Of a stretch of DNA of 64,000 nt, positions 3,816-52,330 are shown piece after piece. Every line of letters begins with the position of its first letter. Positions within the stretch are counted from its first letter, which is position 1. Both the position numbers and the translations under genes were made by a program. The notes under the pieces are model-generated. The model was not told the DNA's origin. It saw only the letters and a program-made list of their open reading frames with translations, and searched no databases. The DNA is from Phycisphaerales bacterium (lineage in GTDB: Bacteria > Planctomycetota > Phycisphaerae > SM23-33 > FEN-1343), in contig PMYD01000025.1 of the NCBI GenBank assembly GCA_003171335.1, forward strand, positions 2,682 through 66,681. Direction: 5' to 3'.

Positions 3816-6800
3816 TTACAGCCGCACCGCCAGCGGCGATGCCCCCTCCAGGATATCCAGGGGCCCGGAAGCGGGCCCAGCCGCATCGGCGCTGCTGTCC
3901 GGCGAATCGCTCAGTCCCTGATTCATCGCCGCCGGGGCGCCCATGGCGAAGACCACCGGGGAAACAGGGGCTGCCGTCGCGGTGGGGGGCGCGAGTATGG
4001 AGAGAGCCGGTTTTGGAGGCTCGGCGAGCAGCGCCGGGGCCGGGGCGATGCGGGTCAAGGCGGCGGCCTGCGGCGGATAGGCCGCAAGCATGGGTGCAAC
4101 TTGGCCTATAACCGGCTGCTCCGATGCGGAGGGAATATTCTGCACGGCCGGCGAGTCGGGCAGAAGCGTGACGGTCTGCACGCTGGAGGGGGCCAGCGGG
4201 TGGTAGTTGGTTTGCCAGATCAGGAAATCGGCGCCGTTGACCATGCTATCGCCGTTGGCATCGCCCTGCGACCAGGAGGCGCCGCTGAGCGTGGGATAGT
4301 TCTGCTGCCAGAGGAGGAAATCGTGGCCGGTCACATCGCCGGAGAGATCAAAATCGCCGGGCGTGGTCTTCAGAATCGTCCCAATGAGATAATCGCGGTC
4401 GGCGGCATCGACGCAGCCATCCCCGTTCAGGTCGTATTGGGGATCGGTGCTGCCGGCGCGAATCGCGGCCGAAAGCGCGTCGATGTCGGCGGCGTTTACT
4501 ATCATGTCCCTATTGATATCCCCCGGGATCACCGGCCCGTGGAATCTCCGGGCCAAAATGAGCGATTGACCGCCGAGGGGCACGTACTGCCGCCAGGCGA
4601 GGGTGAAATCCCCATCGGGGGCCATCGCCACCACGGGGTCGTAGGTCTTCTGGTTGTACACGCTGCTCACCAGAAGCACCGCGCCGGTCAGCGGCTGATT
4701 CTGCCCATCCAGCATGACGCCCCAGATGCCAAAGCCGCCGCAGCAGCCGCTGGGCCAGACGACCTCCATATCGCCGCGCGCATCCATCGCCAGATCGGCG
4801 GCGTGGAAGGTGTAATTGGGGGTTTCAACCACCTCCACCGTGCTGCCGGCGGCCTGGCCGAGCCGGTCGTACCGCTGCACGTCGATTTGCGAATCGCCCT
4901 CATCGTGTCGCCACAGGATGGCATAGTTGCCGGCATCATCGACGGCCACGGCCGGGTCCTGGTTCGTACCACTGGCGGGTGGGGCGATGGCGGTGTCCAG
5001 GTCGATCGTGCCATCGGGCTTCAGCCGCCGCACGCCAAAGCCGCCCTGGCCGGTAGAGCCAAGCTGCCAGATGATGGTGATCTCGCCGGCCGCATCGATG
5101 TCCACATCCGGTTTGCACGGCAAATTGGGATCGCCGGCCGGCACGCTGGCCACGAGCAGGCGCGGCCCGGCGGCTGCGCCCAGCGGCGTAAAGAGCTGCG
5201 CGTACACGTCGGTAGCCGCCAGCGCCGAATCGGACTGAACCCACACGGCAACGGAATTTCCGCCCGGACCCGAGGCCAGGGCCACAGCGCCGGAAATGCC
5301 CGGCAGGGAGTAATCCAGCATCTGTATTTCGGCCGGTGTGGCGCCATTGGGCTGAATCGTCGAATGAAAAACGCCCTCCTGGCCGGCGGCATCGAGTGTC
5401 CACAGGAGATGGGTTGTGCCATCATCCGCCACGCCGATGGCCGGGTTGTACTGCCGGGCATCGCCGCCGACCATGACCAGCTCGGGCGCGCCGGCGGTCG
5501 TCGCATCGGGGGACAGATCACGGTAGAGCAATCCGGTGGCGCCGGTGGAGGTGTCGGTTACTGTGCAGCTCAAGCGCCAAAAAGGAGCAAGGCCAAAGCC
5601 GGGTGGCACTTCGATTTTGACGTCGGTGAATTGGTTGGACCCGTCAAGGTGCCAGAGCAGCGTGGCCGGGCCGGTGGGATTGCCGGTGGCATCGAGCTTG
5701 AGGCCGTAAACATCCTGCGTGCCGGACTTCCAAACCGCCAGGGAACCGTCCCATGCTTTAGCGATTGATGGATCATCGACCTCCTGCTGATTGCCGGATG
5801 CCAACGTCGTGGCCGGCTGGTAACCCACGGGGTTGCCTTGGCCGGAATAGCCGACTTGCTGCACGCGAATGCGGGTTGCGCCGGTTGAGGCCTGGTATTC
5901 CCGCCAGATGAGCAAACCCGGACTCGTTGCCTCGATCGCCGCTATTTGCGGTTGTGAGACCGTCCATCCGGTCTCGTAGTCTATATTCGGCATCGGCGAT
6001 GCAAGAGCTGGCATGTCAGAAGCGAGGCCAAGGGTCGGCGTGACACACTGCGCACAAATTTCCGGCCCGGCGGCACCCTGCCGGCACCATGAGAAGAAGA
6101 GCGACGGCCCGCTGGAGACGGACAAGTCCGTCAGCGGTTCATAACTCGCCGGACTGATGATCGCCGTGCCATAAAAGCGTTGCGCAACAACCGAATAGGT
6201 GAATGTGCCCAAGTCATACTGGATCCAAGCGAATAACCTCCCCTGCACATCTTGCGTTACTACAGGATTTGAAATCAAAACCAAAGGTCCCCCGTTGGCT
6301 TGGATAGTCAAGCATCGGCTTGCGCCCAAGCGCGATGCCAGAATATCGCCTTGACCAGTCGGCTCTTGCGAAATGGCGGTCCCATCAGTGGAGACTGACA
6401 TAGTCAGGGGCGAGCTGCCGCCCAATCCGGCGGCAAGGCAAACCGAGGTAGAGGGCAGAATCGCACTACTTCTCCAATAGTAAAGAGAGCTACTGGATGT
6501 TCCTTGTTCCAGCCAGGCAATGGCGTTGTTCGGGTGTTCTGGCACCAAGGAAAGTTGCGACACGGACTCGACCGGCTGCTGGCACATGAACGGCCCTGCC
6601 GGAACCCAGCCCACAGTTTCAAAGTTGTAATCGCTAGTCCAAACATGCTTCTGGCCATTGGCGGTAGCTGTCCATCCCACGGTGACTTCGCCGGTGGATT
6701 GCATGGCAAGGGCCGGCTGCGAAACGGGTGCCTCGGCCACCAGATATTGGGCGCCGAAAACAGCGCCGGAGGTGGCGTAAAGCTGTAGACGAATGCCACC

Positions 6801-7514
6801 CGCATCGTTCCACGCGACGGCGAAGTCGCCCGAATCGCACGCCACCACGGGCATCATGTCCCACGAGGAAGGTCCGGTGGCAATCTGCAGATCGGCGGGC
6901 CAGACGGGCGAGCCGGACTTGTCGAGCTTGCGGGCCCAAACCGTCATCTGGCCGGCTTGCGAGTCGAGTTGCTCCCAGACGATGTACAGGTTGTCGCTGG
7001 CATCCAGGGCCAGGGCCACATCGCCCAGGGGTTTTCCATCGGAGGCGGCGGAGGTGACGATGTCGCCGCCGCCGGCTTGGGAAATGTCGCCGGCCGAATA
7101 GCGCCACACGGTGATGCGGTCCAGGCCGTCCGCCTGGCTGCTGGAAAGCCAGGCGACGGCGTAATCGCCGTTGGCGTTCATGGCGGCGGCCACGTGGCGA
7201 ACCATGACTTCGGGGCCGGGCGTGGCGAGTTCAAAGATGGGCGATTCGGGCCAGCCGTCAAAGCCGATGTGCTCGGCATACAGGCCGACGTTGCCGCCGC
7301 TGCGGAACCAGGCGGCGATTTCGCCGGTGTAGCTGCCGGCCACGGCGCCCGAGAGGATATAGTCCTGGTCGAAGGTGGGGCCGATGGTGAAGGCCGGTCC
7401 CAGCGGGTCGGCCGCCGCCAGGAGCAGCCGGCTTTCGAGGTTTTCGCAGCCGGCAAACGCCCCCGCGGCGGCTGCCGGCCGGCCGTTGCGAAACGCGCTG
7501 CGTGTCCCGCCCAT
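3816..7514 (-). CDS. giant secreted repeat protein with C-terminal dockerin-type Ca-binding repeats and a Pro/Ala-rich tail
   Basis: Start ATG is the complement of 7512-7514, preceded by an AGGAGG SD. The N-terminus MGGTRSAFRNGRPAAAAGAFAGCENLESRLLLAAADP carries the planctomycete-type ..LE.R.LLS/A.. secretion motif. Dockerin-like repeats appear near the C-terminus: DINRDMIVNAADIDAL..DLNGDGCVDAADRDYL..GDANGDSMVNGADFLIWQ. The 64 extra N-terminal residues in the ORF track (RWWHRLSACVL twice) are just the upstream tandem repeat read in frame. Confidence 0.7.
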   Translation of the reverse strand: MGGTRSAFRNGRPAAAAGAFAGCENLESRLLLAAADPLGPAFTIGPTFDQDYILSGAVAGSYTGEIAAWFRSGGNVGLYAEHIGFDGWPESPIFELATPGPEVMVRHVAAAMNANGDYAVAWLSSSQADGLDRITVWRYSAGDISQAGGGDIVTSAASDGKPLGDVALALDASDNLYIVWEQLDSQAGQMTVWARKLDKSGSPVWPADLQIATGPSSWDMMPVVACDSGDFAVAWNDAGGIRLQLYATSGAVFGAQYLVAEAPVSQPALAMQSTGEVTVGWTATANGQKHVWTSDYNFETVGWVPAGPFMCQQPVESVSQLSLVPEHPNNAIAWLEQGTSSSSLYYWRSSAILPSTSVCLAAGLGGSSPLTMSVSTDGTAISQEPTGQGDILASRLGASRCLTIQANGGPLVLISNPVVTQDVQGRLFAWIQYDLGTFTYSVVAQRFYGTAIISPASYEPLTDLSVSSGPSLFFSWCRQGAAGPEICAQCVTPTLGLASDMPALASPMPNIDYETGWTVSQPQIAAIEATSPGLLIWREYQASTGATRIRVQQVGYSGQGNPVGYQPATTLASGNQQEVDDPSIAKAWDGSLAVWKSGTQDVYGLKLDATGNPTGPATLLWHLDGSNQFTDVKIEVPPGFGLAPFWRLSCTVTDTSTGATGLLYRDLSPDATTAGAPELVMVGGDARQYNPAIGVADDGTTHLLWTLDAAGQEGVFHSTIQPNGATPAEIQMLDYSLPGISGAVALASGPGGNSVAVWVQSDSALAATDVYAQLFTPLGAAAGPRLLVASVPAGDPNLPCKPDVDIDAAGEITIIWQLGSTGQGGFGVRRLKPDGTIDLDTAIAPPASGTNQDPAVAVDDAGNYAILWRHDEGDSQIDVQRYDRLGQAAGSTVEVVETPNYTFHAADLAMDARGDMEVVWPSGCCGGFGIWGVMLDGQNQPLTGAVLLVSSVYNQKTYDPVVAMAPDGDFTLAWRQYVPLGGQSLILARRFHGPVIPGDINRDMIVNAADIDALSAAIRAGSTDPQYDLNGDGCVDAADRDYLIGTILKTTPGDFDLSGDVTGHDFLLWQQNYPTLSGASWSQGDANGDSMVNGADFLIWQTNYHPLAPSSVQTVTLLPDSPAVQNIPSASEQPVIGQVAPMLAAYPPQAAALTRIAPAPALLAEPPKPALSILAPPTATAAPVSPVVFAMGAPAAMNQGLSDSPDSSADAAGPASGPLDILEGASPLAVRL

Positions 7515-7540
7515 GCTCCTTCCTCCTGATCCGTCCGAAC

Positions 7541-7606
7541 GAAGAACACAGGCTGAAAGCCTGTGCCACCACCGAAGAACACAGGCTGAAAGCCTGTGCC
7601 ACCACC
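7541..7606. repeat. perfect tandem duplication of a 33-bp unit (GAAGAACACAGGCTGAAAGCCTGTGCCACCACC), each holding the hairpin CACAGGCT-GAA-AGCCTGTG
   Basis: Two identical adjacent copies read directly, about 27 nt upstream of the start codon of the giant secreted protein gene. Part of the GGTGGCACAGGCT..AGCCTGTGCCACC REP-like family. Confidence 0.85.
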
Positions 7607-7715
7607 GCCGTGCCCCCCGGTCACAGATACGACTGATTATAAACCCGATTTGCGCCGGCGCAGCGTCAAAATCTTCGCCGCGAAGATCCCGGGTGCACGC
7701 CAATATTTGGCATCA

Positions 7716-7855
7716 GGTGGCATGCCCTCACGACGAAGGCCGCCTTTGGCGGCCGAGGCGGGTGGGCATGTCTTGCGGATGCGGCACATCTTGTTTCACC
7801 GAACGCCCATGCCCACCCGTCCGGTGCTTGCGCCCCATCCGTGAGGGCATGCCAC
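7716..7855. repeat. nested-palindrome element, copy 1 of 3 (outer IR GGTGGCATGCCCTCACG/CGTGAGGGCATGCCAC; inner IR GGGTGGGCATG/CATGCCCACCC)
   Basis: Read directly. Same architecture recurs at 10217..10358 and 27519..27642, with different loop sequences but the same stems. Confidence 0.85.
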
Positions 7856-7883
7856 ATCCAGACCTGGGGTCGCGATTCTTGTG

Positions 7884-8906
7884 TTAGAATCCGTAGAAGA
7901 CGGACATCTCGCGCAGGCTCTTGACGGGCACTTTGCTGGCCCAGCCGGCCTGGCCGAAGGCGATCATGCGCTCCCGGCACACCCGCTTCATATTGTCGCG
8001 TGCGGGGCCGAGGTACTTGCGCGGGTCGAATTCTTCCGGCTTGGTGGCGAAGACCTTTCGGATGGCGGCGGTGATGGCCATGCGGTTGTCCGTGTCCACG
8101 TTGATCTTCCGCACGCCGTTCTTGATGCCGCGCTGGATCTCCTCGACGGGCACGCCGTAGGTCTGCTTCATCTTGCCGCCGTACTTGTTGATCTCGTCCT
8201 GCAGTTCCTGCGGCACGCTGGAGGAGCCGTGCATCACCAGGTGCGTGTTGGGCAGCCGCTTGTGGATCTCTTCGATGCGGCTCATCACCAGCACCTCGCC
8301 GGTGGGTTTCTGCGTGAACTTGTAGGCCCCGTGGCTTGTGCCGATGGCGACGGCCAAGGCATCGACGCCGGTTTCCTTGACGAAGCGCTCGGCGTCGTTG
8401 GGGTCGGTGAGGTGCTTGAGCGCATCGGCCGCGGAGAGGCCGGCCCCGTGGCCATCCTCGATGCCCCCGAGCGTGCCGATCTCGCCCTCGACGGATACGC
8501 CCATGGCATGGGCCACATCGACCACCTGCCTGGTGACCTTGACGTTCTCGGCGTAGGTGGTGGGGGTCTTGGAATCGGCCTTCAGCGACCCATCCATCAT
8601 GACGGAGGTAAAACCGTAGGCGATGGCCGAGAAGCACGTGGAGGGGCTGTTGCCGTGGTCCTGGTGCATGACGATGGGCAGCTCGGGGTAGAGTTCGGCG
8701 GCGGCGATCATGAGGTGCCGCAGGAAATTATCGTTGGTGAACTCGCGGGCGCCGCGGCTGGCCTGGACGATGACCGGGCTTTCCGTCTCCCGGGCGGCCT
8801 CCATGATGGCCTGGATCTGCTCCATGTCGTTGACGTTCAGGGCGGCGACGCCGTAGTTGTTCTCGGCCGCATGGTCCAGCAGCACGCGCAGTGGGATAAG
8901 AGGCAT
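7884..8906 (-). CDS. fba: fructose-bisphosphate aldolase, class II
   Basis: 340 aa from a verified ATG (complement of 8904-8906). Class II FBA hallmarks: ..HQDHGNS.., ..[12 protein letters not shown].., ..[11 protein letters not shown].., ..HGSSSVPQE... Confidence 0.9.
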
Positions 8907-8950
8907 TGAAGTTCTCTTTCTTTTCTTGGGTTAAACGGAATACCAGGGAA

Positions 8951-8995
8951 TTCTCGCAGAGGAATTGCAAATTGCAAATCGCAAATTGCAAATTT
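8951..8995. repeat. heptamer array (AATTGCA-type, 5+ units) about 50 bp upstream of the fba start
   Basis: GGAATTGCAAATTGCAAATCGCAAATTGCAAATTTAACGG, an AT-rich tandem-heptad tract in a GC-rich genome. Related arrays flank palindromic elements at 18430..18551 and 18993..19115. Confidence 0.7.
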
Positions 8996-9165
8996 AACGG
9001 CCGCACGCGGACGGGCAAGCCGCGTGCATAGGCTTGGGTGCCGTGGCTTGCGGAGCGCAGCGCAGCAACCACGACGACGGCGATGCAGAGCACGCGTGGT
9101 TGCTTCGGTCGCCGCAGCGACCTGTCCGCCATACTTCGGCGAATCCTGCGGAGAATGCCATCTGG

Positions 9166-9425
9166 GGATTCAACCCCGGAGGGGTTGATACAGCTCCAGC
9201 CCCGGGTTGGCGAAGACCGCGAAGCGGGCGCGCCTACCCGGGGAACAGGAGGCACCCAATTGCGTTCAACCCCGGCAGGGGTTGAATAGCTCCGTCTCGA
9301 ACCATTCTGCCCGCCGTCGTGCTATTCAACCCCTGCCGGGGTAGGAACCTGCGTCGGCGTCACCCAGGGTAGCCTCGCCGTGCTCGGCAACCCTGGGCTG
9401 GAGCTGTATCAACCCCTGCCGGGGT
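9166..9425. repeat. cluster of four palindromic hairpins of the TCAACCCCGGCAGGGGTTGA family within a larger ~260 bp inverted arrangement
   Basis: Hairpins near 9166, 9262, 9322 (imperfect) and 9399. The flanks GATACAGCTCCAGCCCCGGGTT (near 9185) and AACCCTGGGCTGGAGCTGTATC (near 9385) are inverted copies of each other. Intergenic between fba and the LysE-type gene. Confidence 0.7.
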
Positions 9426-9435
9426 TGAAAAAGAA

Positions 9436-10098
9436 CTAGCGGAAAAGATCGAAGCACTGCGACGTCGCCCCGTACAGGAAGCTGCCCGCGATCACGAAGA
9501 GCGCCAGCCCGCACAGGGCCAGGATGACGCGCTGGGATTTGGCGCCCAGCAGGGTGGACCCTTTAAACGTGGCGGTTGTCAGCAGCTCCAGCCAGACGGC
9601 ATCGCACATCCAGTGGATGATGCCGAAGGCGGCAAAGGCCATCAGGCCCAGGCTGCTGGCCTTGATAGCCAGGGCCAGGCCCACCGAGGCCCACCACAAG
9701 AGAAACAGCGGGTTCATGGCCGTCAGCACCAGGCCCACGAGGATGGGGCTGCGGGCGATCTTGGAGGCCGAGGAGCCGGAGCTCTTGGGCTGGGGATTTT
9801 TGAGCATGCCGACGGCCAGCCACAGCATCATGAGGCCGCCGACCAGGCCGATGGCGATTTTCACCGCCGGGATGTTCAGCACCTGCCCCACGCCCAGGAG
9901 GATGAGCGCCATCAGCGGGAATTCCACGATGCCGTGGCCGACGGCCATGCTCAGCCCCGCGTGCCGGCTGCGCGTGCCGGCGGCCAGGGCGGCGGCGGTC
10001 ATCGCGCCGGGCGAGATTACGCCCGAGAGCGACAGCACCACGGCCTGCAGCACCACCAGGGCGGTTTGGTTCCACGGCGTCGGTACGGTTGCAAGCAT
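9436..10098 (-). CDS. LysE/RhtB-type amino-acid exporter family membrane protein
   Basis: 220-aa polytopic membrane protein from a verified ATG (complement of 10096-10098). N-terminal ..VISPGAMT.. resembles the LysE-family SPGP motif, and size and TM pattern fit. Confidence 0.5.
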   Translation of the reverse strand: MLATVPTPWNQTALVVLQAVVLSLSGVISPGAMTAAALAAGTRSRHAGLSMAVGHGIVEFPLMALILLGVGQVLNIPAVKIAIGLVGGLMMLWLAVGMLKNPQPKSSGSSASKIARSPILVGLVLTAMNPLFLLWWASVGLALAIKASSLGLMAFAAFGIIHWMCDAVWLELLTTATFKGSTLLGAKSQRVILALCGLALFVIAGSFLYGATSQCFDLFR

Positions 10099-10216
10099 GT
10101 CGCCAGTTTAGAAGGAGCCGAGCAAATTCCAAATGCGAAATTCAAAAGGAACCGGACAGTGAGGCGAAGCCATGCGGCGCGAGGTGGCAAGCGTTGTAAG
10201 GTGGCATGCGTTGTAA

Positions 10217-10358
10217 GGTGGCATGCCCTCACGGCTGGGGCGAAGCCCCGGACGGGTGGGCATGGGTTTTCCATTTGCGCGAGGTCTTCCTTCTGCGCGG
10301 CAGACATGCCCACCCGCCTTGGCCGCCCAGGCGGCCTGCGGCGTGAGGGCATGCCACC
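10217..10358. repeat. nested-palindrome element, copy 2 of 3
   Basis: GGTGGCATGCCCTCACG..GACGGGTGGGCATG..CATGCCCACCCGCC..CGTGAGGGCATGCCACC. Preceded by a direct repeat GCGTTGTAAGGTGGCATGC x2. Sits between hydF stop and the LysE-type gene start. Confidence 0.85.
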
Positions 10359-10364
10359 TAATAC

Positions 10365-11597
10365 TTAACGGCCCTTCAATCGGTGGTACATCTCCAGCGC
10401 CGCCGGGAAGGGGCCGAGGGCCCGCTCGAGGATGCCCAGCGTATAGGCGATGGTCATGCCGTAATTGGCAACCGGCACGCCCGCCGCACGGCAGCGGAGC
10501 AGGCGCGAGAGCATCTCGCGGCGGTTCCACATGCAGGCACCGCAGTGGATGACGAGTTTGTAGGTCGAGAGGTCATCGGGGAAGTCGTGGCCCTGCACGT
10601 GCGTGAAGTCCATGGTGCCGCCGACATATTGCGTGAGCCAGCGCGGGATCTTCACGCGGCCGATGTCATCACCGATGGGGTGGTGGCTGCACGCCTCGGC
10701 CACCAGGATGCGGTCGCCGGGGCGGAGCTGCTCGATGGCCAGCGCACCCTCGACGAACACGTTCAAATCGCCCTTGGCGCGGGCGAAGACGATGGAGAAC
10801 GAGGTCAGCGGAATATCCTTGGGCGTGTCGCCGGCCACCTTGAGAAAACCCTGGGAATCGGTCACGACCAGGGCGGGGGGGCGCTTGAGCCGGTCCAGGG
10901 CATCGCGCAGCTCGCGCTCCTTGACGACCAGGCAGTACGCATCCACATCCAGCACATCGCGGATGGCCTGCACCTGCGGCAGGATGAGCCGGCCCTTGGG
11001 GGCCTCCAGGTCGATGGGCACGACCAGCATGACCAGCTCGCCCGCGCGCACGAGGTCGCCGATGATGGCCGGGGCGTTGATGAAATCCTCCGGCGCGGCC
11101 TTGATGAGCGCCTCGCGCAGGTCCAGGATGCCCTCGCCCTTGGAGGCGACGGTGTGGACGATGGGAATCTTCCTGCCCTTGAGGTCCTTCAGGAGCGCCG
11201 CATCGGGCTTTCCCAGGTCGGACTTGTTGAACACGACGATGGCCGGGGTCTTTCGCTCCGCCAGCTCGGCCAGGATGGCCTGTTCAAACGGACCCCACTC
11301 GCCGGCGGCCGTGACGAGGATGCCGACATCCGTGCGGTCGAACACCTGCCGCGTGCGCTTGACCCGCAGCTCGCCCAGCACGCCCACATCGTCGATGCCG
11401 GCGGTGTCGATGAACAGCACCGGGCCGATGGGCAGCAGCTCCATGGGCTTTTCCACCGGGTCGGTGGTCGTGCCGGCGATCTCCGAGACGATCGACACCG
11501 CCTGGCGGGTCATGGCGTTCAAGAGCGAGCTCTTGCCGACATTCCGCCGGCCGAAGATGCCGATGTGCAGACGAAAACCTTTGGGAGTACTTCTCAT
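10365..11597 (-). CDS. hydF: [FeFe]-hydrogenase maturation GTPase HydF
   Basis: N-terminal GTPase P-loop GIFGRRNVGKSSLLNA. C-terminal HydF cluster-binding motifs ..EACSHHPIGDD.. and ..IHCGACMWNRRE.. (CxH...HCxxC). The track's start 11603 is TTG; the ATG two codons in (complement of 11595-11597, MRSTPKGF...) is more likely. Confidence 0.85.
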   Translation of the reverse strand: MRSTPKGFRLHIGIFGRRNVGKSSLLNAMTRQAVSIVSEIAGTTTDPVEKPMELLPIGPVLFIDTAGIDDVGVLGELRVKRTRQVFDRTDVGILVTAAGEWGPFEQAILAELAERKTPAIVVFNKSDLGKPDAALLKDLKGRKIPIVHTVASKGEGILDLREALIKAAPEDFINAPAIIGDLVRAGELVMLVVPIDLEAPKGRLILPQVQAIRDVLDVDAYCLVVKERELRDALDRLKRPPALVVTDSQGFLKVAGDTPKDIPLTSFSIVFARAKGDLNVFVEGALAIEQLRPGDRILVAEACSHHPIGDDIGRVKIPRWLTQYVGGTMDFTHVQGHDFPDDLSTYKLVIHCGACMWNRREMLSRLLRCRAAGVPVANYGMTIAYTLGILERALGPFPAALEMYHRLKGR

Positions 11598-11603
11598 GTT
11601 CAA

Positions 11604-13176: not shown

Positions 13177-13191
13177 AGTCGGGGACTCCAA

Positions 13192-13500
13192 ATTCCAAAT
13201 TCCAAATCCCAAATCCCAAACAACGGTTCGACCGCCCTGAGCGGCTCACCGCCGAAGGGGCTCCAAATCCCAAATTCCAAAGGGGAGCAAACATCCCGGT
13301 GCCACGGCTGCGTTGTTTGCAGCCGTGCGCTGTGTGAGTCGGTAAACGAGAGGTTCCTTGGCTTCCGCAGGACCTCTGGCAGCGCTGCCAGGTCTTGGCG
13401 CACGGCTGCAGAAGGCGCAGCCGTGGCACCAGGGACGTTTTGTTCCCATTTGGAATTTGGTGCTTGGGATTTGTTTGGGATTTGGAATTTGGGATTTGGG
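13192..13500. repeat. composite palindromic element: (CCAAATT/CCAAATC)n heptamer arms flanking an inverted pair of GTGCCACGGCTG..CAGCCGTGCGCT hairpins
   Basis: Left arm 13192-13225 and 13262-13280. Hairpins 13298-13332 and 13398-13430. Right arm 13442-13500 (GGAATTTGG..GGGATTTGGGATTTC). Lies between hydG stop and the aspA-like start. Confidence 0.8.
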
Positions 13501-13506
13501 ATTTCT

Positions 13507-14976: not shown

Positions 14977-15098
14977 GGTGCCACGGCTGTCCGCAGCCGT
15001 GCGCTGTGCGGACAACAGGGCAACCGGTTCGCTGGCTTCCAGCGGACCTTTCCGCGTTCTGGTCATTCCAGCGCACGGCTGCGGACAGCCGTGGCACC
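14977..15098. repeat. inverted pair of GGTGCCACGGCTGTCCGCAGCCGTGCGCT hairpins separated by ~65 bp
   Basis: First hairpin 14977-15006, second (inverted copy) 15070-15098. The stop of the REC-HK gene (15063) falls between them, so the second hairpin encodes that protein's last ~11 residues. A near-identical pair occurs at 42736..42860. Confidence 0.85.
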
Positions 15099-16260: not shown

Positions 16261-16397
16261 GATTTCAAATTTCAAATTTCAACTTTGGTGGCACAGGCTT
16301 TCCAGCCTGTGGATTCTGGCCGTCACAGGCTGGAAAGCCTGTGCCACCACTCCCGCTGTTTCCGGCAGTTAAATTTGAAATTTGAAATTTGAAATCC
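16261..16397. repeat. palindromic element: (TTTCAAA)n heptamer arms flanking two inverted GGTGGCACAGGCT-TTCC-AGCCTGTGG hairpins
   Basis: Left arm GATTTCAAATTTCAAATTTCAACTTTGG (16261-16286). Hairpins 16287-16312 and 16324-16350. Right arm AGTTAAATTTGAAATTTGAAATTTGAAATCC (16367-16397). Lies between the HydS-HK stop and the REC-HK start. Confidence 0.85.
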
Positions 16398-18429: not shown

Positions 18430-18551
18430 GGAATTGCGAATTGCAAATTGCAAATTGCAAATTGGGGAACTCCGAACCTCCCGCCGCTGTGGGCAGTGAG
18501 TGGCGATCCGGTGTCCCTGAATTGGCAATTTGCAATTCGCAATTGGCAATC
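18430..18551. repeat. palindromic element: (AATTGCA)n left arm and inverted (TGCAATT/TGGCAATT) right arm flanking an ~55 bp GC-rich core
   Basis: GGAATTGCGAATTGCAAATTGCAAATTGCAAATTGG ... GAATTGGCAATTTGCAATTCGCAATTGGCAATC. Sits immediately upstream of the HydS-HK start and downstream of the CheY gene stop. Confidence 0.8.
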
Positions 18552-18992: not shown

Positions 18993-19115
18993 GATTGCAA
19001 ATTGCCAATTGCAAATTGCCAATTAAAAACTCTTCCGCAGGAAGTGCCGCTTGATCGGCGCGGCGCCTCGCCGCAGCTCTTCAATTTGCAATTTGCAATT
19101 GGCAATTGGCAATCC
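18993..19115. repeat. palindromic element with (AATTGCA/AATTGCC) heptamer arms, related to 18430..18551
   Basis: GATTGCAAATTGCCAATTGCAAATTGCCAATT ... CAATTTGCAATTTGCAATTGGCAATTGGCAATCC. Fills the hydA-stop / CheY-start spacer. Confidence 0.8.
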
Positions 19116-20852: not shown

Positions 20853-20975
20853 CCGTGGCACGGGCGTCTCGCCCGTGAGTCGCACGGGCATCTTGCCCGT
20901 GATCCGGCCGTTTCTTCTCAGTTTCCACGGGCGAGACGCCCGTGGCACTCATGGGCGGGACGCCCATGCTACTCT
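20853..20975. repeat. cluster of four CACGGGCG-NNNN-GCCCGTG family hairpins in the hydB-hydA intergenic spacer
   Basis: CACGGGCGTCTCGCCCGTG, CACGGGCATCTTGCCCGTG, CACGGGCGAGACGCCCGTGGCAC, CATGGGCGGGACGCCCATG, all read directly. A second cluster of the same family is at 38676..38795. Confidence 0.85.
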
Positions 20976-23900
20976 TAATCCGGTTGCGTGAACTCCAGGT
21001 CGCAGCGCAGGCAGCGGCGGGCCTCCTTGACGGCATCCGCCTCGCTGATACACAGCTCGACCTCGGCGAAGGTGCACTTGCGCTGGCCCACGGGCAGCTC
21101 GGGGCACTTGACGCGCTCGACGATTGTCTCCGACTCCTCATCGTCGCCGCCGCCCGCCACGGGCGCCACGTACACCCCCGGCACGATGGCCTTGGGCAGC
21201 ACGCGCATGGCCTTGCCGCGGACGAACCGGTCGATCATGGCCGCCGCTTGCTTGCCGGTGCCCACCGCCGCAATGACGGTGGCCGGCCCGGTCACGGCGT
21301 CGCCGCCGGCGAAGATGCCCGTGCGACTGGTCTGGAAGCTCTCGCCGTTGGTCGCCACCGAGCCCCAGCGCGTAAGCGTCAATTGTTCGAGACCCTCGGT
21401 CTCGGGCTCCTCGCTGATGGCCACGACCAGCGTGTCCAGCTCCAGGTCGAATTCCGAGCCGGCGATCGGCACGGGCCGTTGCCTTCCGGAGGCATCGCGC
21501 TCGCCCAGCTTGTTGCGCTGCAGGCGCAGGCCGGTGAGCTTGCCATCTTTCGTGTGCACGGCCAGCGGGGCGACCAGCTCTTCAAGCTTGACGCCCTCTT
21601 GCAGCCCGGCCTCGACCTCTTCGTGGTAAGCCGGCATCTCCTCGCGCGTGCGGCGGTACAGCACCGTGACGCTGGTGACGCCTTTTTGCCGCAGGGCCAC
21701 GCGGGCGGCATCCATGGCGGAGTTGCCGCCGCCGATCACGCCCACCCGCCCGTGCGCCAGCTCCTGCCCGTGCAGGTTATGGGCCTTGAGGAAGGTCATG
21801 CTCGGGATGACGCCGCGGGCATCCTCGCCGGCTAGATCAAGCTTCTTGGACTTATGAGCGCCCGTGGCCACATAGACCGCGCTAAAACCCTGGGCCAGCA
21901 GGTCGTCCAGGCTGAAATCGCGGCCCAGTGCCGTGTTGTAGCGGATCTCGACGTTGGGATTGGTCAGCGCATCGATCTCCCGCCGCAACAGATCGCGCGG
22001 CAGCCGGTACGCCGGGATGGCGCCCACCAGCATGCCGCCGGGCTTGGCCTCGCGCTCAAAGACGGTCACGCGATGGCCCATCAGCGACAGGCAGTTGGCG
22101 GCCGTGAGGCCCGATGGCCCCGCGCCGATGACGGCGATCTTCGCCGCATTGGCCGCCGCCGGCGCCACCGCGGGCGTACCGACGCCGGGGCTGACGTGGT
22201 CCACGACGAACCGCTTGAGCGTACGCACGGCCACCGACTCACCGCCGGTTGAGCCGGCGCGGCAGGCGTGCTCGCACGGGTGATGGCACACGCGGGCGCA
22301 GGCCGAGGGGAACGGGTTACTCTGCCGGATCACCCGGTAGGCCTCCTCGTATTCGCCGCGGCCGATGTGGGCCACGTACCGCCACACTTCCGTGCCGGCG
22401 GGGCAGGCGTTCTGGCAGGGCGCGCCCACCAGGCTCTTGCACGCCCCGGCGGGGCAGCGGCGCTCGAAGACATGCGCCTCGTATTCCGCGCGGAACCATT
22501 TCAGCGTGCTCAGCACCGGGTTGGCGGCGGTCTGACCTAAGCCGCACAGGCTGGTGGCCTTGATCATCTCGCCCAGCCGCTCCAGGTGCATGATGCCCTG
22601 CACCCGCAGCAGGCTGTCGAAGGGGCTCTCCTGGCGCGGGCTGCGCGTCAACGCCTGGAGGATTTCCAGCATGCGCTTGGTGCCTTCGCGGCAGGGAATG
22701 CACTTGCCGCAGCTCTCCGACTGGATGAACTCCATGAAGAACTTGGCGAAATCGACCATGCAGGTCGCCTGATCAACCACCACCAGGCCCCCCGAACCCA
22801 TGATGGTCCCAAACTTCTTGAGCGCCTCGTAATCGGTCGGAATATCCAGCTCTTTTTCCGGCACGCAGCCGCCGGAGGGCCCGCCGATCTGCACGGCTTT
22901 GCACGCCTTGTTGTTGGGAATGCCGCCGCCGATATCAAACACCACCTGCCGCAGCGTGGTGCCCATGGGCACCTCCACCAGGCCGGTGCGGCGGACCATG
23001 CCCGAGAGGGCGAACACCTTGGTGCCCTTGGAGCTGGCCGTGCCCATGGCGGCGTACCACTGCGGGCCAATGTCAAGAATAAGGGGCAGATTCGCCAGCG
23101 TCTCCACGTTGTTGATGACCGTGGGCTTGCCGAACAGGCCCTTGACCGCCGGGTAGGGCGGCCGCGGCCGCGGCATGCCGCGCCGGCCTTCGATGCTGTG
23201 GATGAGCGCCGTTTCCTCGCCGCACACGAACGCGCCGGCGCCCTGCTTGATGACGATCTCCAGGGAGAAGCCGCTGTCCAGCACGTTCTCGCCGATCAGC
23301 CGGTACTGCCGCGCCTGGGCCATCGCCTGCTGAAGGCGGCGGATGGCCACGGGGTACTCGGCGCGGATGTAGATGTACGCCTTGGACGCGCCGATGGCGT
23401 AGGCCGCGATGAGCATGCCTTCCAGCAGCCGGTGCGGATCGCTCTCGCCCACGGCCCGGTCCATGAACGCGCCGGGGTCGCCCTCGTCGGCGTTGCAGAT
23501 GAGATATTTCTGGTTCGCCTGGGAGGCGCGGGCGAATTTCCACTTCTTGCCAGTGGGGAACCCGCCGCCGCCGCGGCCGCGCAGGCCGCTGGCTTCCACC
23601 TGGTCGCAGACTTCCTCGGGCGTCATCTTGCCCAGCACCTTGGCCACGGCCGAGTAGCCGCCCCAGGCGATGTATTCATCGATGCTTCCCGGGTCCAACA
23701 GGCCGCTGGTGGCCAGCACCACGCGCCGCTGGCGGATGAGGAACGGGTGCTCGTCGAGATAGCGCACCTGGTCCCAGGGCTTTAGCAAGAGCCCTTCCTG
23801 CCGGAACTGGCCCAGCGCCGCGCCCTCGGCGACCTTGGCATCGACCAGCACCGCCTTGAGCACGGCCTCGACCTTGTCGGCCGTGGCATTTCCAAAGCAG

Positions 23901-24815: not shown

Positions 24816-24840
24816 CGGGCACGGCTGGGCCGGTTGGTGG

Positions 24841-24894
24841 CCCAGGCTTTCAGCCTGTGGCCTAAGTTTGGTGGCACAGGCTTTTAGCCTGTGG
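24841..24894. repeat. two REP-like hairpins (CCCAGGCT-TTC-AGCCTGTGG and GGTGGCACAGGCT-TTT-AGCCTGTGG)
   Basis: Read directly. Same family as 7541..7606, 16287..16350 and 52106..52129. Confidence 0.8.
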
Positions 24895-24986
24895 CCGAAC
24901 CTGTTCCGGCTCGCTTCATCATCGGTCGTTCGGCGTTGCAGCTTGTGAACCAGGCAACGCCCCAGCGTTGTTAAATCGCAAACGCT

Positions 24987-25139: not shown

Positions 25140-25660
25140 CTGAGGAATTTCCTCAGTTGGCGTTCCGGCAAGAAGCTTCTCAGATCAGGAATTTCCGATG
25201 TGACTCCAAACGGTTCGGAGTCGCGCTGGGCTCCAACTGGAGAATTTCTCCAGTCGACTCCGACATTGTCGGAGTCGCGCCCCCCTCAGGTCTGGGATTT
25301 CCGGATGCGACTCCAAAAGATTTGGGGTCGGGCGGCCGTCCAAGTGGAGAACTTCTCCAGTCGACTCCGACATTGTCGGAGTCGCGCCCCCGTCACGCCT
25401 GGAATTCCCGGAAGCGACTCCAATCGGTTCGGAGTCGCGCTGGGGTCAACTGTGGTTTTCCGCAGTCAACTCCGAAAATTTCGGAGTTGAGCTGTGTTCC
25501 GGCGGTCATGGCAGCAATCAGTTCATGCAGAGCATGAACTGAATGAAGATCAACTCCGAGAATTCGGATTTGAGTTGGGCCTGGCAGCCAATCAGTTCGT
25601 TACGGGAATGAACTGAAGGGGAGATCGACTCCGGAAATTTCCTGGTTGCGCCCCGCGCTT
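25140..25660. repeat. ~0.5 kb non-coding array of imperfect hairpin-forming repeats
   Basis: Units include CAACTGAGGAATTTCCTCAGTTG; CCAACTGGAGAATTTCTCCAGTCGACTCCGACATTGTCGGAGTCGCGCCCCC (x2); GACTCCAAACGGTTCGGAGTCGCGCTGGG (x2); CAACTCCGAAAATTTCGGAGTTGA; CAGTTCATGCAGAGCATGAACTGA. All read directly. Confidence 0.8.
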
Positions 25661-27518: not shown

Positions 27519-27642
27519 GGTGGCATGCCCTCACGCCGCCGGCCGCCGGGGGCGGCCAAGGTGGGTGGGCATGTCTGCCCGCAAAGAAAAAACCCATGCC
27601 CACCCGTCCGGTGCTTCGCCCCGTCCGCGAGGGCATGCCACC
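27519..27642. repeat. nested-palindrome element, copy 3 of 3
   Basis: GGTGGCATGCCCTCACG..GGTGGGTGGGCATG..CATGCCCACCCGTCCGGTGCTTCGCCCCGTCCGCGAGGGCATGCCACC. Sits in the divergent spacer between the GT39-like gene and the HEAT-repeat gene. Confidence 0.85.
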
Positions 27643-30084: not shown

Positions 30085-30235
30085 GAAGAGCAGGGTGCCG
30101 TGGTTGCGTCCTTGTGCAACCACGCGTCTCGGAAAGAATCCCCCCCTTGGGCGTGGCTGGGTGCCGTGGTTGCGTCTTTGTGCAACCACGCGTTTCGGAA
30201 AGAATCCTCCCCTTGCGCGTGGCTGCCGGAGCGGC
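30085..30235. repeat. tandem ~57-bp direct repeat x2, each holding a 9-bp-stem hairpin CGTGGTTGC-N8-GCAACCACG
   Basis: GGTGCCGTGGTTGCGTCCTTGTGCAACCACGCGTCTCGGAAAGAATCCCCCCCTTGGGCGTGGCT, then a near-identical second copy. Confidence 0.8.
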
Positions 30236-30305: not shown

Positions 30306-30534
30306 AGCCGTGGTGTGATTGATGCCATCGAGGCGCGAACCGGTTCTACTGGAACTGGTTAGTCGATGAGGGCTGTCCGCGCGGCCGTTGAACGGCCGTG
30401 CGGCGGCGCGAAGAATTGGCAATTGAAGAGCGTTTAGAGCAACATGTCCGCATGGTCCGGTGCGGAGTGACGGAAACGGCAACTGCGGAGTTTCCACAAT
30501 TCCATTATCTGTAATGGATTATGCGTGGTTTCGG

Positions 30535-30690
30535 ACAGAACAACTGAGGAATTTCCGCAGTTCCATTATCTGTAACGTCGGCTGCCGGAAGTTGGAAAGA
30601 CCAACTGAGGAACTTCCGCAGTTCCATTATCTGTAACGGCCGGCTGCCGGAAGTCGGAAAGACCAACTGAGGAACTTCCGCAGTTGCTCC
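30535..30690. repeat. tandem ~62-bp direct repeats (about 3 units): CAACTGAGGAACTTCCGCAGTTCCATTATCTGTAACGGCCGGCTGCCGGAAGTCGGAAAGAC
   Basis: Read directly. Each unit can fold (CTGCCGGAAGT / ACTTCCGCAG). The 5' part is related to the CAACTGAGGAATTTCCTCAGTTG unit at 25140. Confidence 0.8.
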
Positions 30691-38549: not shown

Positions 38550-38675
38550 AAAAAAAGGATTCAGAAAGGCGAACGTGAAACTTCAAACCAATTCAAATTA
38601 CCAAACGGCGGGCCAAAAGGCGTGCCTTGGCGATGTGTGTTCATTCGGATTTTGAATTCCAGATCTCTAAAAAAG

Positions 38676-38795
38676 TGGCATGGGCGTCTCGCCCATGAGT
38701 CCCACGGGCGTCTCGCCCGTGGCGAAATGGAGAAAACTGCCGGAAGCACGGCCAAGATGGCGTGCGACTCACGGGCGGGACGCCCGTGCCACATG
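38676..38795. repeat. second cluster of CACGGGCG-TCTC-GCCCGTG family hairpins
   Basis: CATGGGCGTCTCGCCCATG, CACGGGCGTCTCGCCCGTGG, CACGGGCGGGACGCCCGTGCCAC. Lies between the alpha/beta-hydrolase stop and the GH3 gene start. Confidence 0.85.
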
Positions 38796-40100: not shown

Positions 40101-40880
40101 TGCCGGCGCGAATCTTGCGGGAGCCCGCAGGGCGACTGAGGAGTAGCCCCTGGCGCTGGCCCACGCGCAGCGCGGGCCGAGCCTGGGGAGAGAGAGGCCC
40201 ACCAGATCTCCGGAGCCCGCAGGGCGATTGAGCCGCTCATCCCCACATCGTCTCAGGATCAAACGAAATGTGGTGCCGTTTTAAAAACGCCATGAACTCT
40301 TCTTCGTACGTCATCTTGCGGTGATGTTCCGCCTGGCCGGCAATGTACGATTCCACATCCGGTCGAATGGAATCCGCCACCGTGAATGCGGCGTAGCCCT
40401 GTTGCCACTTGAAACGGGATTCGATTTTGAAGGTTCGATTCACCCACCCGGTCGTAAGACTCTTGAGCTTCCCCACCGCCGTCGGAACGCCTATCGGCGG
40501 CCTCAGCGAGAGCAGCGCGTGCAGGTGGTTTTCCGTCCCGCCGAGGGCCAGGGCGCAGCCGAGTTCCTTCTTGGCGATCCCCGCGGCATATTCATACAGG
40601 CGGTGCTGGAGATCCGGCGTGATGAGCGGCCTGCGATCTTTCGTGCTGAAGATGACGTGATAGAGCAGGTGCGTGAACGTGTGACTCATGGAACCTCCCG
40701 TAGAAATTCAAGCGGGAGGTTACCCCGGTCCTTCATGGCGTGTCCATAGAATTGGGGGACTCAATCGCCCTATCGGGCTCTAACCCAATCGGGATACCGG
40801 TTTCCCCAGGCTCGGCCCGCGCTGCGCGTGGGCCAGCGCCAGGGGCTACTCCTCAGTCGCCCTGCGGGCTCACGAAGAAG
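40101..40880 (-). mobile_element. IS200/IS605-family or RAYT-like unit: Y1 (HUH) transposase gene flanked by ~70-bp near-identical inverted repeats containing REP hairpins
   Basis: Left flank 40118-40187 (GAGCCCGCAGGGCGACTGAGGAGTAGCCCCTGGCGCTGGCCCACGCGCAGCGCGGGCCGAGCCTGGGGA) is the reverse complement of the right flank 40794-40866. A second GGAGCCCGCAGGGCGATTGAG copy is at 40205-40228, and a degenerate inverted one near 40755. Confidence 0.7.
40237..40689 (-). CDS. tnpA: IS200/IS605-type Y1 transposase (TnpA / REP-associated tyrosine transposase-like)
   Basis: 150 aa from a verified ATG (complement of 40687-40689): MSHTFTHLLYHVIFSTKDRRPLI... HUH motif in ..ENHLHALLSL... Conserved Tyr region ..KWQQGYAAFTV... 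Confidence 0.75.
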   Translation of the reverse strand: MSHTFTHLLYHVIFSTKDRRPLITPDLQHRLYEYAAGIAKKELGCALALGGTENHLHALLSLRPPIGVPTAVGKLKSLTTGWVNRTFKIESRFKWQQGYAAFTVADSIRPDVESYIAGQAEHHRKMTYEEEFMAFLKRHHISFDPETMWG

Positions 40881-42704: not shown

Positions 42705-42735
42705 CAGTCGGTGCTCGCGCGGCGCTAGTCCCGAG

Positions 42736-42860
42736 GGTGCCACGGCTGTCCGCAGCCGTGCGCTCGCACCTGCAAGGCGAAAGGGCAGGTCCTGTGGGAC
42801 CCGCCGGACCTTCGTTAGGCGTTGTAGCCACAGCGCACGGCTGCGGACAGCCGTGGCACC
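42736..42860. repeat. inverted pair of GGTGCCACGGCTGTCCGCAGCCGTGCGCT hairpins (same family and architecture as 14977..15098)
   Basis: Hairpins at 42736-42764 and 42832-42860 with a ~67 bp unrelated spacer. Lies between the RR stop and the M16 peptidase start. Confidence 0.85.
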
Positions 42861-42999
42861 CAGGAACATTGCGGGGCCGGTGGCCTTCGGGCGGTATATC
42901 CTTTTGAAAGTGGGCTTCGTCGGGGATTGGGAACGCGAAGCAAGGAGGCGCGGGGCGGTTGCTCGGCGGCCCGGCTCGGCATTTCTTCAGGAGATCAGC

Positions 43000-49729: not shown

Positions 49730-50640
49730 GACAGCCATTTTGCCGGAACCAACAGTGCTTCATCCCCGTGCGCAAAAACAGCTTGTGAAGCTGCGCAATA
49801 TGCACGATTAGCACAGTTTGCTTAAGCCATCGCACGCTGCAAGTCTTCTATTTGCAAGTGCTTATTATGCAACACCTGTTGGTCTTAAGCATTATGCACT
49901 ATTGCATAAAATGCATATTGCCCATTTTGACATTCACATAAGCGCTTGTAGCACAGTTTCTAACGGATTCAGTTCCAACAAGAACTGGGCGGTGGGCCGC
50001 TTGGCGTTTGGAGCCCGAAAGAGCGCTGGAGAGCGAAGGGCGTTTGGAGCCCATAGGGCGTTTGACCATTAGCCACGGGCGCAAGCCCGTGGAAAAAGAT
50101 GGCCCGATTTCATTTTGGAGCCCTTCAGGGCGATTGAATCTCCCAACCATAGCTGGAGCCAGCATTTGTGCAATCCGCTACGGGGCACGTGCGATGCCGA
50201 AGCCGTCAGTCGCCCTTGCGGGCTCTTGCACATGGAGCGCCTGGTCTCCACGGGCTTGCGCCCGTGGCTAATGGTCAAACGCCCTACGGGCTATTCTTGA
50301 CTGCCAAAAGGGGCACGTTTCATTGATTCTCCGGTAGGCTGCATAATGGAAAAGGCTTGTCGCCATTTTCCGTGCGATTGCCTGGGAATCTCTCTTCACT
50401 TGCCAAGAACTGCCAACGCAGTGCGTCTAGCACGCACTGGCGGAGCCGGATGCTTCAGAAATGGGTTAGTCGCACCCAGATCCGATGCTGTGCTCCACGG
50501 CTTGCTATTATAGCCTAATATGCGATCTTGTCAAGATATTTCCCAAATAATCCCGAAGAAATTTTTCCCGGATGAAATGTGGATCTTGCCCCCGGGCACC
50601 ATTCAGGCTGCCGATGTGGGATTTTTGCGGCTGACGCCAA
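49730..50640. repeat. ~0.9 kb lower-GC non-coding island nesting REP copies of the RAYT-flank and CACGGGCG families
   Basis: AT-rich stretches (..CATTATGCACTATTGCATAAAATGCATATTGCCCATTTTGACATTCACATAAGC..). GGAGCCCTTCAGGGCGATTGAATC (50115-50138) and inverted CAGTCGCCCTTGCGGGCTC (50207-50225). A 37-bp inverted repeat GGGCGTTTGACCATTAGCCACGGGCGCAAGCCCGTGG at 50053-50090 and 50247-50283. GGGCGTTTGGAGCCC x2. Confidence 0.75.
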
Positions 50641-52105: not shown

Positions 52106-52129
52106 GGTGGCACAGGCTGTCGGCCTGTG
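52106..52129. repeat. single REP-like hairpin GGTGGCACAGGCT-GTCG-GCCTGTG
   Basis: Read directly, in the divergent spacer between the TolC-like and radical-SAM genes. Confidence 0.75.
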
Positions 52130-52330
52130 AACGACCTTGCTGAGTCTATCTTATTAGCGCGATCACCTTGCACGCAAGCCTCCCGACCGCTGGCCGCCTG
52201 CAATGCGCGCCTGGCGGACATGCCGGCGGGCAAGCTTTACGAGCGTTGCCGCTTCAAGCATCGCCTGCCGCCGGCGGGTATGATTAGCCTGAGCGCGGCA
52301 AGCTGTCGCCGACGCGGAGGTGGGGTATTC

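Follow-up and report, generated by a model that had tools for sequence, protein, structure and literature searches.

Palindromic repeats of the REP type carry, in their canonical form, a GT[AG]G tetranucleotide at the 5' foot of a hairpin and lie within 1 kb of a tnpA_REP gene (PMC6006769). GTGG feet have been described in Opitutus terrae (PMC3733652), and some REPs of P. putida start with GTGG as well (PMC2817692). Both head-to-head and tail-to-tail REP dimers are known, and they may fold separately or as one large stem-loop (PMC3733652, Di Nocera et al.). Most dimers are heterodimers, perhaps owing to the instability of long perfect palindromes, and tail-to-tail dimers have variable spacers (PMC3733652). 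Two inverted REPs separated by a short spacer constitute a REPIN, a hairpin-forming doublet that is copied as one unit (PMC3116915, PMC3337134). In the planctomycete Rhodopirellula baltica several sets of REPs and RAYTs are present (PMC3733652).

We analysed three copies of a nested palindromic element found in a 64-kb stretch of DNA from a Phycisphaerales bacterium (hereafter, the window). These three loci are very probably tail-to-tail REP dimers (REPIN-like doublets), non-autonomous and spread by a RAYT. They resemble the REP/REPIN-RAYT systems of E. coli (TnpA_REP, 4ER8), Pseudomonas fluorescens (REPINs) and Opitutus terrae (GTAG-20) in that a GT[AG]G foot immediately precedes an imperfect hairpin whose mispairs are conserved. 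The resemblance extends to the organization of the family into inverted dimers with a short spacer, most of them heterodimers and the tail-to-tail spacers variable, to its intergenic and apparently multi-copy distribution with no target duplication, and to compensatory changes in the stems; in relatives, one small Y1/HUH gene is flanked by the units. Unlike REPs described in the papers that we searched, the family has the unit sequence CATGC-YS-TCACG ... CGGGT-SR-GCATG with a T·T / C-G / A·G internal loop. The literature searched contained no description of this unit sequence, of the loop or of the RAYT clade, and on RAYTs in Planctomycetota it offered no account of the present family, REPs of R. 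baltica being mentioned only in general terms. The sequence family, which is common in Planctomycetota, is new; its kind (REP/REPIN-RAYT) is already known.

Three doublets of inverted units in the window

The earlier note had reported three copies of the element, and all three are present, at positions 7716-7856, 10217-10358 and 27519-27642, with six of six outer arms and six of six inner arms in place and a size of 124-141 bp. Across the window, which has a G+C content of 65%, the 17-nt outer arm GGTGGCATGCCCTCACG has six matches (four exact and two with one mismatch) against about 0.6 expected by chance, and none of 100 shuffles reached six. The matches form three convergent pairs (7716/7840-7856, 10217/10342-10358 and 27519/27626-27642). 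For the 11-nt inner arm GGGTGGGCATG, each of the six expected sites has an exact match. As a single strand, each copy folds into an outer stem with two side hairpins and a central hairpin (a four-way junction), with energies of -80 to -104 kcal/mol and z-scores of -5.8 to -8.6 relative to shuffles. A profile search of the 64-kb window revealed no units besides the six in copies 1-3.

Alignment of all three copies on both strands showed copy 2 to be in the opposite orientation to copies 1 and 3. When copy 2 is reverse-complemented, the three copies align over their full length, and all three have in common a left hairpin, GGCCGCC-loop-GGCGGCC, and a right hairpin, GG(T/G)GC-TT(G)C-GCCCC. True variability is confined to the central spacer (37, 40 and 21 nt in copies 1, 2 and 3), the edges of which are still homologous. 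This changes the reading of the inter-stem segments, which had been thought to differ in sequence among the copies while each kept a hairpin of its own: once copy 2 is flipped they are homologous. The left hairpin of copies 1 and 3 had been compared with a non-homologous hairpin of copy 2, and the difference was mistaken for covariation; the apparent conservation of structure despite sequence change in the window is thus an artefact of the unrecognised inversion. Homology covers both units and the edges of the spacer, and the copies therefore derive from a doublet and not from independent singlets. Outside the spacer they are approximately 80% alike, no two being identical; to judge by their sequences, they are old, diverged members of the family.

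Copy 1 (7716-7856, plus strand) comprises a type-A unit, a spacer and a type-B unit, as placed by the arms and by the full-length alignment, and its fold has an energy of -89 kcal/mol (z -6.6). Unit A (7716-7770, plus strand) consists of a G-GTGG foot, a basal stem CATGCCC/GGGCATG, the T·T / C-G / A·G internal loop and an enlarged apical hairpin GGCCGCC-TTT-GGCGGCC; taken alone as single-stranded DNA it folds with -21 kcal/mol (z -4.2), and it matches the family profile. The 37-nt spacer (7771-7807) is the sole strongly variable part in the alignment. Unit B (7808-7856, minus strand), which also matches the profile, reads on the minus strand as a T-GTGG foot, a CATGCCC stem and the apical sequence GGGGCGCAAGCACC, with a folding energy of -14.1 kcal/mol.

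Copy 2 (10217-10358, minus strand) has its arms in place, and its reverse complement aligns with the other copies from end to end. It is composed of unit B (10217-10264, plus strand; profile E = 4.7e-6), a 40-nt spacer (10265-10304, from the alignment) and unit A (10305-10358, minus strand; profile E = 1.9e-6). Copy 3 (27519-27642, plus strand; arms and alignment) is a short-spacer doublet in a divergent intergenic region, with unit A at 27519-27573 (plus strand, profile match), a 21-nt spacer at 27574-27594 and unit B at 27595-27642 (minus strand, arms and profile), where G replaces A once in the TCACG segment. The aligned spacers of copies 2 and 3 have TCTGCC...CGCAAA...GAAAACC in common, and that of copy 3 resembles one of the copy-2 type that has been shortened by deletion.

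Directly abutting unit B of copy 2 are two partial tandem copies of the junction and head, GGTGGCA[A/T]GC-GTTGTAA, with a 17-nt period (10182-10216, plus strand). Tandem Repeats Finder reports this region as 10182-10226 (period 17, 2.6 copies, 96% matches). Across the family, the foot and 5' arm are often tandemly reiterated at the outer end (49 spacings among 555 heads), and such frequent arrays set the family apart from described REPs. They could have arisen by hairpin-induced slippage or could be a footprint of RAYT strand transfer.

The gene context of the copies was derived from a third-position GC scan and Pfam matches. All three doublets are intergenic, and, as the earlier note had it, copies 1 and 2 follow the stops of fba and hydF while copy 3 lies between divergent genes. 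Copy 1 is 27 nt past the stop of the class II fructose-bisphosphate aldolase gene fba (7884-8906, minus strand), with a large dockerin-containing gene on the other side. Copy 2 lies in front of a LysE-family gene, 6 nt past the stop of hydF (10365-11603, minus strand), and copy 3 is flanked by a PMT_2 glycosyltransferase gene and a HEAT-repeat gene that diverge from it. The outer flanks of the three copies read TGATGCC..., TTACAAC... and TTGCCGA.... The window also contains at least three further families of palindromes with GTGG or GTGC feet, A-T-rich heptamer arrays in many intergenic regions and several longer tandem repeats.

The repeat unit, its relatives and the structure that covaries

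The unit is defined by a GTGG foot immediately 5' of an imperfect hairpin, and the foot is present in six of six window units. The hairpin has a 7-bp basal stem (CATGCCC/GGGCATG), the conserved T·T / C-G / A·G internal loop, a CG clamp and a variable apical stem-loop. In relatives the unit can be written as GG-GTGG / CATGCYS / T C A / CG / 4-bp apical stem with a loop of 3-5 nt / CG / G G T / S'R'GCATG. It is approximately 39 nt long in relatives versus 48-55 nt in the window, where the enlarged apical hairpins also take it beyond the 20-40 nt that is usual for REPs. A doublet is made of two such units in inverted, tail-to-tail orientation with the GTGG feet pointing outward; the outer and inner nested inverted repeats are a geometric consequence of placing two hairpin units in this way.

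An arm-spacer-arm pattern, run once against a collection of species-representative genomes, matched 17 loci, all of them in Planctomycetota genome bins (labelled Phycisphaerae, Phycisphaerales or Planctomycetaceae). With a degenerate pattern, the unit was found at no fewer than 120 metagenome loci, so that further copies, proposed in the earlier note as a check, do exist, at more than 130 related Planctomycetota loci. Because these loci were gathered with a pattern that fixes many stem positions, and their sequences are akin, only the unfixed positions count as tests in what follows. Single units occur at six loci (L004, L005, L011, L014, L015 and L017), where the GTGG foot is kept and no complement lies opposite. 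The doublets found number 72, all with feet outward, and their commonest spacer is 20 nt. Of the two positions preceding GTGG in related units, one is G in 127 of 136 ends and the other in 117 of 136. The flank consensus is TTGG|GTGG; similarity ends about 4 nt outside the foot, and the flanks are unrelated beyond that point. Copy density is three doublets per 64 kb in the window and at most five pattern matches per 12.5 kb in one related contig (L086); on another contig of 4.9 kb (L010), three doublets are found within approximately 1.7 kb.

The search pattern left the basal-stem dinucleotide free on each side, with 16 combinations allowed. In all 90 distinct units the two sides are complementary (CC/GG in 20, CG/CG in 47 and TC/GA in 23), and when any dinucleotide was allowed complementarity was seen in 226 of 234 units, with CT/AG and TT/AA added to the variants. 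Apical stems vary freely but stay paired (ACGC/GCGT, CGGC/GCCG, ATGC/GCAT, TTGC/GCAA, CCCG/CGGG and others), and within the unit the T·T and A·G mispairs hardly vary. Among 49 distinct doublets, the structure with two separate hairpins is 99.0% paired, with ten pairs changed on both sides and 75 such cells in total. None of 500 shuffles reached these values, and sliding the pairing partners resulted in 20-45% pairing. Compensatory changes, which the earlier note had suggested looking for, thus appear once many copies are aligned, and they appear in the separate unit hairpins. Its opinion that the element is not a decaying repeat is borne out to the extent that this is not a randomly decaying one.

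For the same 49 doublets, the nested outer long-range helix is 91% paired, one column being unpaired in 44 of them, and the nested inner long-range helix is 83% paired, one column being unpaired in 43. The nested or cruciform stems were rejected as the selected structure, as most relatives have one or two mismatched positions in them. These mismatches result from the combination of different basal stems, typically CG with TC or CC, in most doublets (63 of 72). Window doublets differ from these usual heterodimers: unlike most relatives, they have the CC/GG stem in both units together with enlarged apical hairpins, and it is this combination that makes a perfect nested fold possible. The window copies constitute a sub-lineage characterized by these two features.

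The four-way junction is also what a structured non-coding RNA would offer, that is, a cloverleaf produced from three loci and acting in trans or in cis. Such an RNA would agree with the minimum-energy RNA fold of each copy, whose z-scores were given above, and with stems that are better conserved than the central loop. In the 49 related doublets, however, covariation is seen in the local hairpins and the long-range stems contain mismatches. G·U pairs in these doublets are no commoner than other mismatches, which is more in keeping with selection on DNA hairpins, or on both strands, than with selection on a single RNA. Copies 1 and 2 are oppositely oriented although both lie in minus-strand transcription units, so their RNAs would be reverse complements of each other. 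Finally, Rfam 15 gave no match across the window at the gathering threshold, and none at E<=1 for copy 1 with relaxed filters. We consider a structured RNA highly improbable, and the functional-RNA half of the earlier proposal, which was for a functional RNA or a protein-recognised DNA cruciform, is not supported in view of the Rfam result, the opposite orientations of copies 1 and 2 and the absence of any preference for G·U. The other half survives in part: DNA recognised by a protein accounts best for the element, the unit being built like a REP hairpin, on which a RAYT (Y1/HUH) transposase acts, whereas covariation favours separate hairpins over a cruciform.

RAYT genes flanked by the unit

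Clustering of open reading frames across the related loci revealed a recurrent protein of approximately 196 amino acids. It is encoded by a RAYT gene that is flanked by the unit at seven independent related loci, three of which (L055, L086 and L010) were found via the DNA motif and four (L142, L144, L146 and L147) via protein similarity alone. In L055 a plus-strand unit (215-253) and a minus-strand unit (903-942) bracket the gene exactly, in L086 it lies between units at 6340-6379 and 7029-7068, and in L010 it is located between two doublets. Each of the four genes found by protein similarity (53-81% identity) has units on both sides within approximately 100 nt. The foot has the variant form GTGTGG in L146 and L147, and the units flanking the gene in L144 have their feet inward, showing that the REP-RAYT arrangement is not uniform.

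The NCBIfam model NF047646 ("REP-associated tyrosine transposase"), which has a cut-off of 80 bits, scores the protein from L055 at 105.5 bits and that from L010 at 90 bits. The Pfam model Y1_Tnp (PF01797) is marginal for these RAYTs (23.1 bits with a cut-off of 23, or no match). Among solved structures the best match is 4ER8, a complex of E. coli TnpA_REP and a REP, in which the HUH motif and the tyrosine motif both line up with those of the RAYT protein; similarity of the RAYT clade to it is distant (E = 1.7e-5), and the host, a member of the Planctomycetota, differs as well. The protein has 4,177 homologues at E<=1e-20, each cluster usually being found on one or two contigs. Where the organism is named, the homologues come from Thermoguttaceae, Phycisphaerae, Pirellulales, Planctomycetaceae and Planctomycetales.

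Next to the RAYT gene in L086 there is a further pair of units (7552-7869) around approximately 215 nt. This segment matches the 3' end of the neighbouring RAYT gene with 82% identity over 121 nt and retains approximately 80 nt of that end. It is an internally deleted REP-RAYT-REP, the step expected between REP-RAYT-REP and a bare doublet.

The only Y1 gene in the window (40237-40689), which is of the IS200 type, was considered as the mobiliser. It was rejected: the gene scores as IS200 (NF033573) and not as RAYT, and its flanks are unrelated 72-nt inverted repeats that contain a GTAG-tagged hairpin of a different sequence and are not repeated elsewhere in the window. RAYTs of the cognate clade are absent from the 64-kb window. 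When the window Y1 protein was used as a tblastn query against all related loci, no match was obtained, which is a false negative, since the cognate RAYTs are too distant from an IS200-type query. We infer that the source genome encodes its cognate RAYT outside the window.

The family has several properties in common with IS200/IS605 elements and with transposase-less PATEs, namely an enzyme of the Y1 HUH superfamily (PF01797), recognition of subterminal hairpins in single-stranded DNA and no target duplication. The left- and right-end hairpins of IS200/IS605 elements, following IS608, are on the same strand. In the present family, unlike in IS200/IS605, the units are inverted and the gene that they flank is a RAYT (NF047646) rather than IS200 (NF033573).

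Turnover, gene setting and significance

Beside 67 doublets, no flanking direct repeat of 3 nt or more was found above expectation, and the best 2-nt flank signal was 9 of 67 versus 2.3 expected, the strongest among approximately 850 combinations of offset and length. The search for target-site duplications, which the earlier note had recommended as a check on mobility, thus revealed no duplication of the MITE type. A classical MITE would be a deletion derivative of a DDE insertion sequence whose 17-bp terminal inverted repeats would serve for cut-and-paste movement. The elements do look like DDE MITEs in being small (124-141 bp), non-coding, intergenic and multi-copy and in having inverted ends. 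They differ from them not only in the missing target-site duplication but also in the nature of these ends: the "terminal repeats" are halves of self-folding hairpins and occur as singlets too, and where such units enclose a gene, it encodes a Y1/HUH RAYT rather than a DDE enzyme. A MITE origin is therefore extremely improbable.

Palindrome content differs between genomes at orthologous sites, where the flanking genes are approximately 77-83% identical. A doublet in L043 stands against a different palindrome at the orthologous site of L077, and a doublet in L087 stands against a doublet of another REP-like family in the window (13295-13433). These differences in occupancy, like the internally deleted REP-RAYT-REP of L086, are indirect signs of mobility. 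In L149, whose fba gene has 89% nucleotide identity to that of the window, an alignable, decayed copy is present at the position of copy 1: bases are substituted in its inner stem, its outer arm contains an insertion and part of its spacer is deleted; extra REPs of other families lie nearby. The decayed orthologue indicates that copies are inherited vertically and erode. Both the unrelated palindromes at orthologous sites and the broken stems in L149 also speak against the structured RNA discussed above.

Three short contigs from other samples, 99-100% identical to the window, break off within copy 1 (L140 and L141) or copy 2 (L150), as expected of a multi-copy repeat. We looked for presence/absence polymorphism in the near-identical contigs, and L138-L141 and L150 all carry the element. 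The copy 1 sequence of L140 contains 12 differences, located at the contig end, and could be an assembly chimera.

It is also conceivable that the element serves the host in cis, as a 3' exonuclease barrier, an attenuator or a nucleoid-protein site, a role that would be compatible with its being a REP. Copies 1 and 2 are 27 and 6 nt past stops within a run of genes on the same strand, and the copy downstream of fba has been retained since the L149 lineage split. Many related doublets are likewise found 6-60 nt past a stop codon, and 18 are in convergent or tandem settings versus 4 in divergent ones, a rough count from crude ORF calls, with 14 doublets seemingly inside ORFs, that is suggestive only. 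Roles of REPs in mRNA stability and translation are known from work cited in PMC6006769 and PMC3733652. On the other hand, a terminator scan of 7400-10600 on both strands gave no terminator-like site at copies 1 or 2, and no T-run of the intrinsic terminator type follows the element hairpins. Copy 3 is in a divergent promoter region, the stems of the L149 orthologue have decayed, other palindromes are used in orthologous intergenic regions, and the uncertain ORF calls weaken the context count itself. Such a host function is unlikely on balance.

Similarly doubtful is a more specific possibility, co-option of the doublet in this lineage, either as a structure that processes or stabilises transcripts or as a cruciform bound by a host protein. 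With identical basal stems and enlarged apical hairpins, the window sub-family can form a perfect four-way junction, unlike most relatives. A co-opted doublet could process or stabilise transcripts between co-transcribed genes independently of its orientation. As a separate matter, and with equally modest expectation, the head arrays might be an in-vivo record of the sites at which this RAYT clade cuts and rejoins DNA.

Returning to the reading as REP dimers, the following course of events would account for the three loci. The doublet family would be non-autonomous, and its RAYT would be a single-copy gene elsewhere in the genome. By analogy with E. coli TnpA_REP, each unit would fold into its own hairpin on single-stranded DNA, and the Y1/HUH RAYT would recognise, cut and rejoin this hairpin in trans. 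The doublets would thereby spread through intergenic DNA without target-site duplications and, after insertion, would be inherited vertically and slowly decay. Effects on transcripts, such as 3'-end protection of the fba or hydF messages, would be a putative by-product. Transposition, the positions of cleavage and the single-stranded DNA intermediate are all modelled here on E. coli TnpA_REP and would apply to the present family to the extent that the analogy holds.

The result is mainly a correction: the striking element is a REP dimer, and work on it as a novel RNA or cruciform system is accordingly not warranted. The finding further accounts for the breaks in planctomycete metagenome assemblies at these sites. 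A clean and abundant planctomycete REP/RAYT pair is also defined here, and its RAYT clade numbers over 4,000 homologues at E<=1e-20. With its distinctive hairpin, five compensated basal-stem variants and mostly heterotypic dimers, the family may serve as a test case for how RAYTs read hairpins.

The Y1 transposase gene and the other hairpin families of the window

The window contains its own Y1/HUH transposase gene (40237-40689, minus strand), which encodes a protein of 150 aa scoring 74 bits with Pfam Y1_Tnp and 59 bits with the NCBIfam IS200/IS605 model (cut-off 55); one source names it RayT. On either side of the gene lie inverted repeats of 72 nt that are 99% complementary (40118-40189 and 40803-40874), each with a GTAG-footed imperfect hairpin inside (GTAG-CCCCTGGC...GCCTGGGG). 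This flank sequence is unrelated to the unit of the REP family studied here, and no further copies of it were found in the rest of the window. The arrangement of gene and repeats resembles the 'TIRYT/TIRtron' of Di Nocera et al. (PMC3733652).

A second REP-like family matches the studied one in its frequency in the window, with three doublets each. Its doublets (13295-13433, 14977-15098 and 42735-42861) are arranged tail to tail, follow the pattern GGTGC-CACGGCTG-loop-CAGCCGTG-CGC and have spacers of approximately 62-67 nt. The first of them occupies a site where the related locus L087 has a doublet of the studied family instead. A third family (GTGG-CACGGGCG-TCT-CGCCCGTG) forms two clusters of about four hairpins apiece in direct and inverted order, at 20855-20976 and 38671-38792, and the clusters are approximately 82% complementary to each other. 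The fourth (GGTGG-CACAGGCT-TTT-AGCCTGTG) is found at 7540-7607, 24835-24916 and 52106-52130. At 7540-7607 it is a perfect tandem duplication (33 nt x 2.1), located about 110 nt from copy 1 of the studied family (7716-7856) in the same intergenic region.

Other repeats

A-T-rich heptamer arrays, consisting of 3.6-8.6 copies of AATTGCA, TCCAAAT or ATTTGGG, lie between many genes of the minus-strand run (8963-8994, 10123-10147, 13187-13220, 13448-13504, 16371-16395, 18432-18464, 18994-19024 and 19082-19113), often with a start codon 25-100 nt downstream. An inverted pair of these arrays, at 13187 and 13448, brackets a REP doublet, and a similar array is located upstream of fba, the class II fructose-bisphosphate aldolase gene, in L149, a contig from a related species. 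Longer intergenic tandem repeats are found at 25179-25443 (107 nt x 2.5), 30093-30225 (66 nt x 2.0, 94% matches) and 30480-30685 (61 nt x 3.4), and palindromes lie within the units of the first two. The inverted repeat at 50048-50292 (46 nt, 98% complementary, spacer of 153 nt) contains the hairpin CCACGGGCGCAAGCCCGTGG, a type also seen upstream of fba in L149 (1-330), and may represent another small mobile element.

Altered copies and tandem arrays of the studied family

In L086, the segment 7552-7869 is a REP-RAYT-REP element with an internal deletion: two units surround an interior of approximately 215 nt, which can still be aligned with the 3' end of the complete RAYT gene next to it (82% identity over 121 nt). 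In L149, whose fba has 89% nucleotide identity, the orthologue of copy 1 downstream of that gene (1640-1800) is retained in decayed form. Two REP-like hairpins belonging to other families, neither of them present in the window, lie in this intergenic region as well. L140, a nearly identical contig assembled from a different sample, matches the window exactly in fba and differs from its copy 1 at 12 positions (1330-1478, corresponding to 7709-7860 of the window). All 12 differences are confined to the spacer and the left apical hairpin, at the end of the contig; they reflect either gene conversion between the copies or the assembly of different genomic copies into a chimera.

Tandem arrays of the GTGG foot plus the 5' arm are found at 10182-10226 in the window, at 1910-2010 in L059, in L052, L100, L003, L046, L142 and L146, and in about 25 other loci, in every case at the outer end of a complete unit. 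Most have periods of 17-25 nt, the copy number reaches five, and 49 array spacings were counted among 555 heads. Each copy breaks off inside the apical stem's 5' arm or just past it, and the next begins 0-3 nt ahead of GGGTGG. Such arrays could have arisen by slippage at the hairpin, or they could be a footprint of cleavage and rejoining by RAYT.
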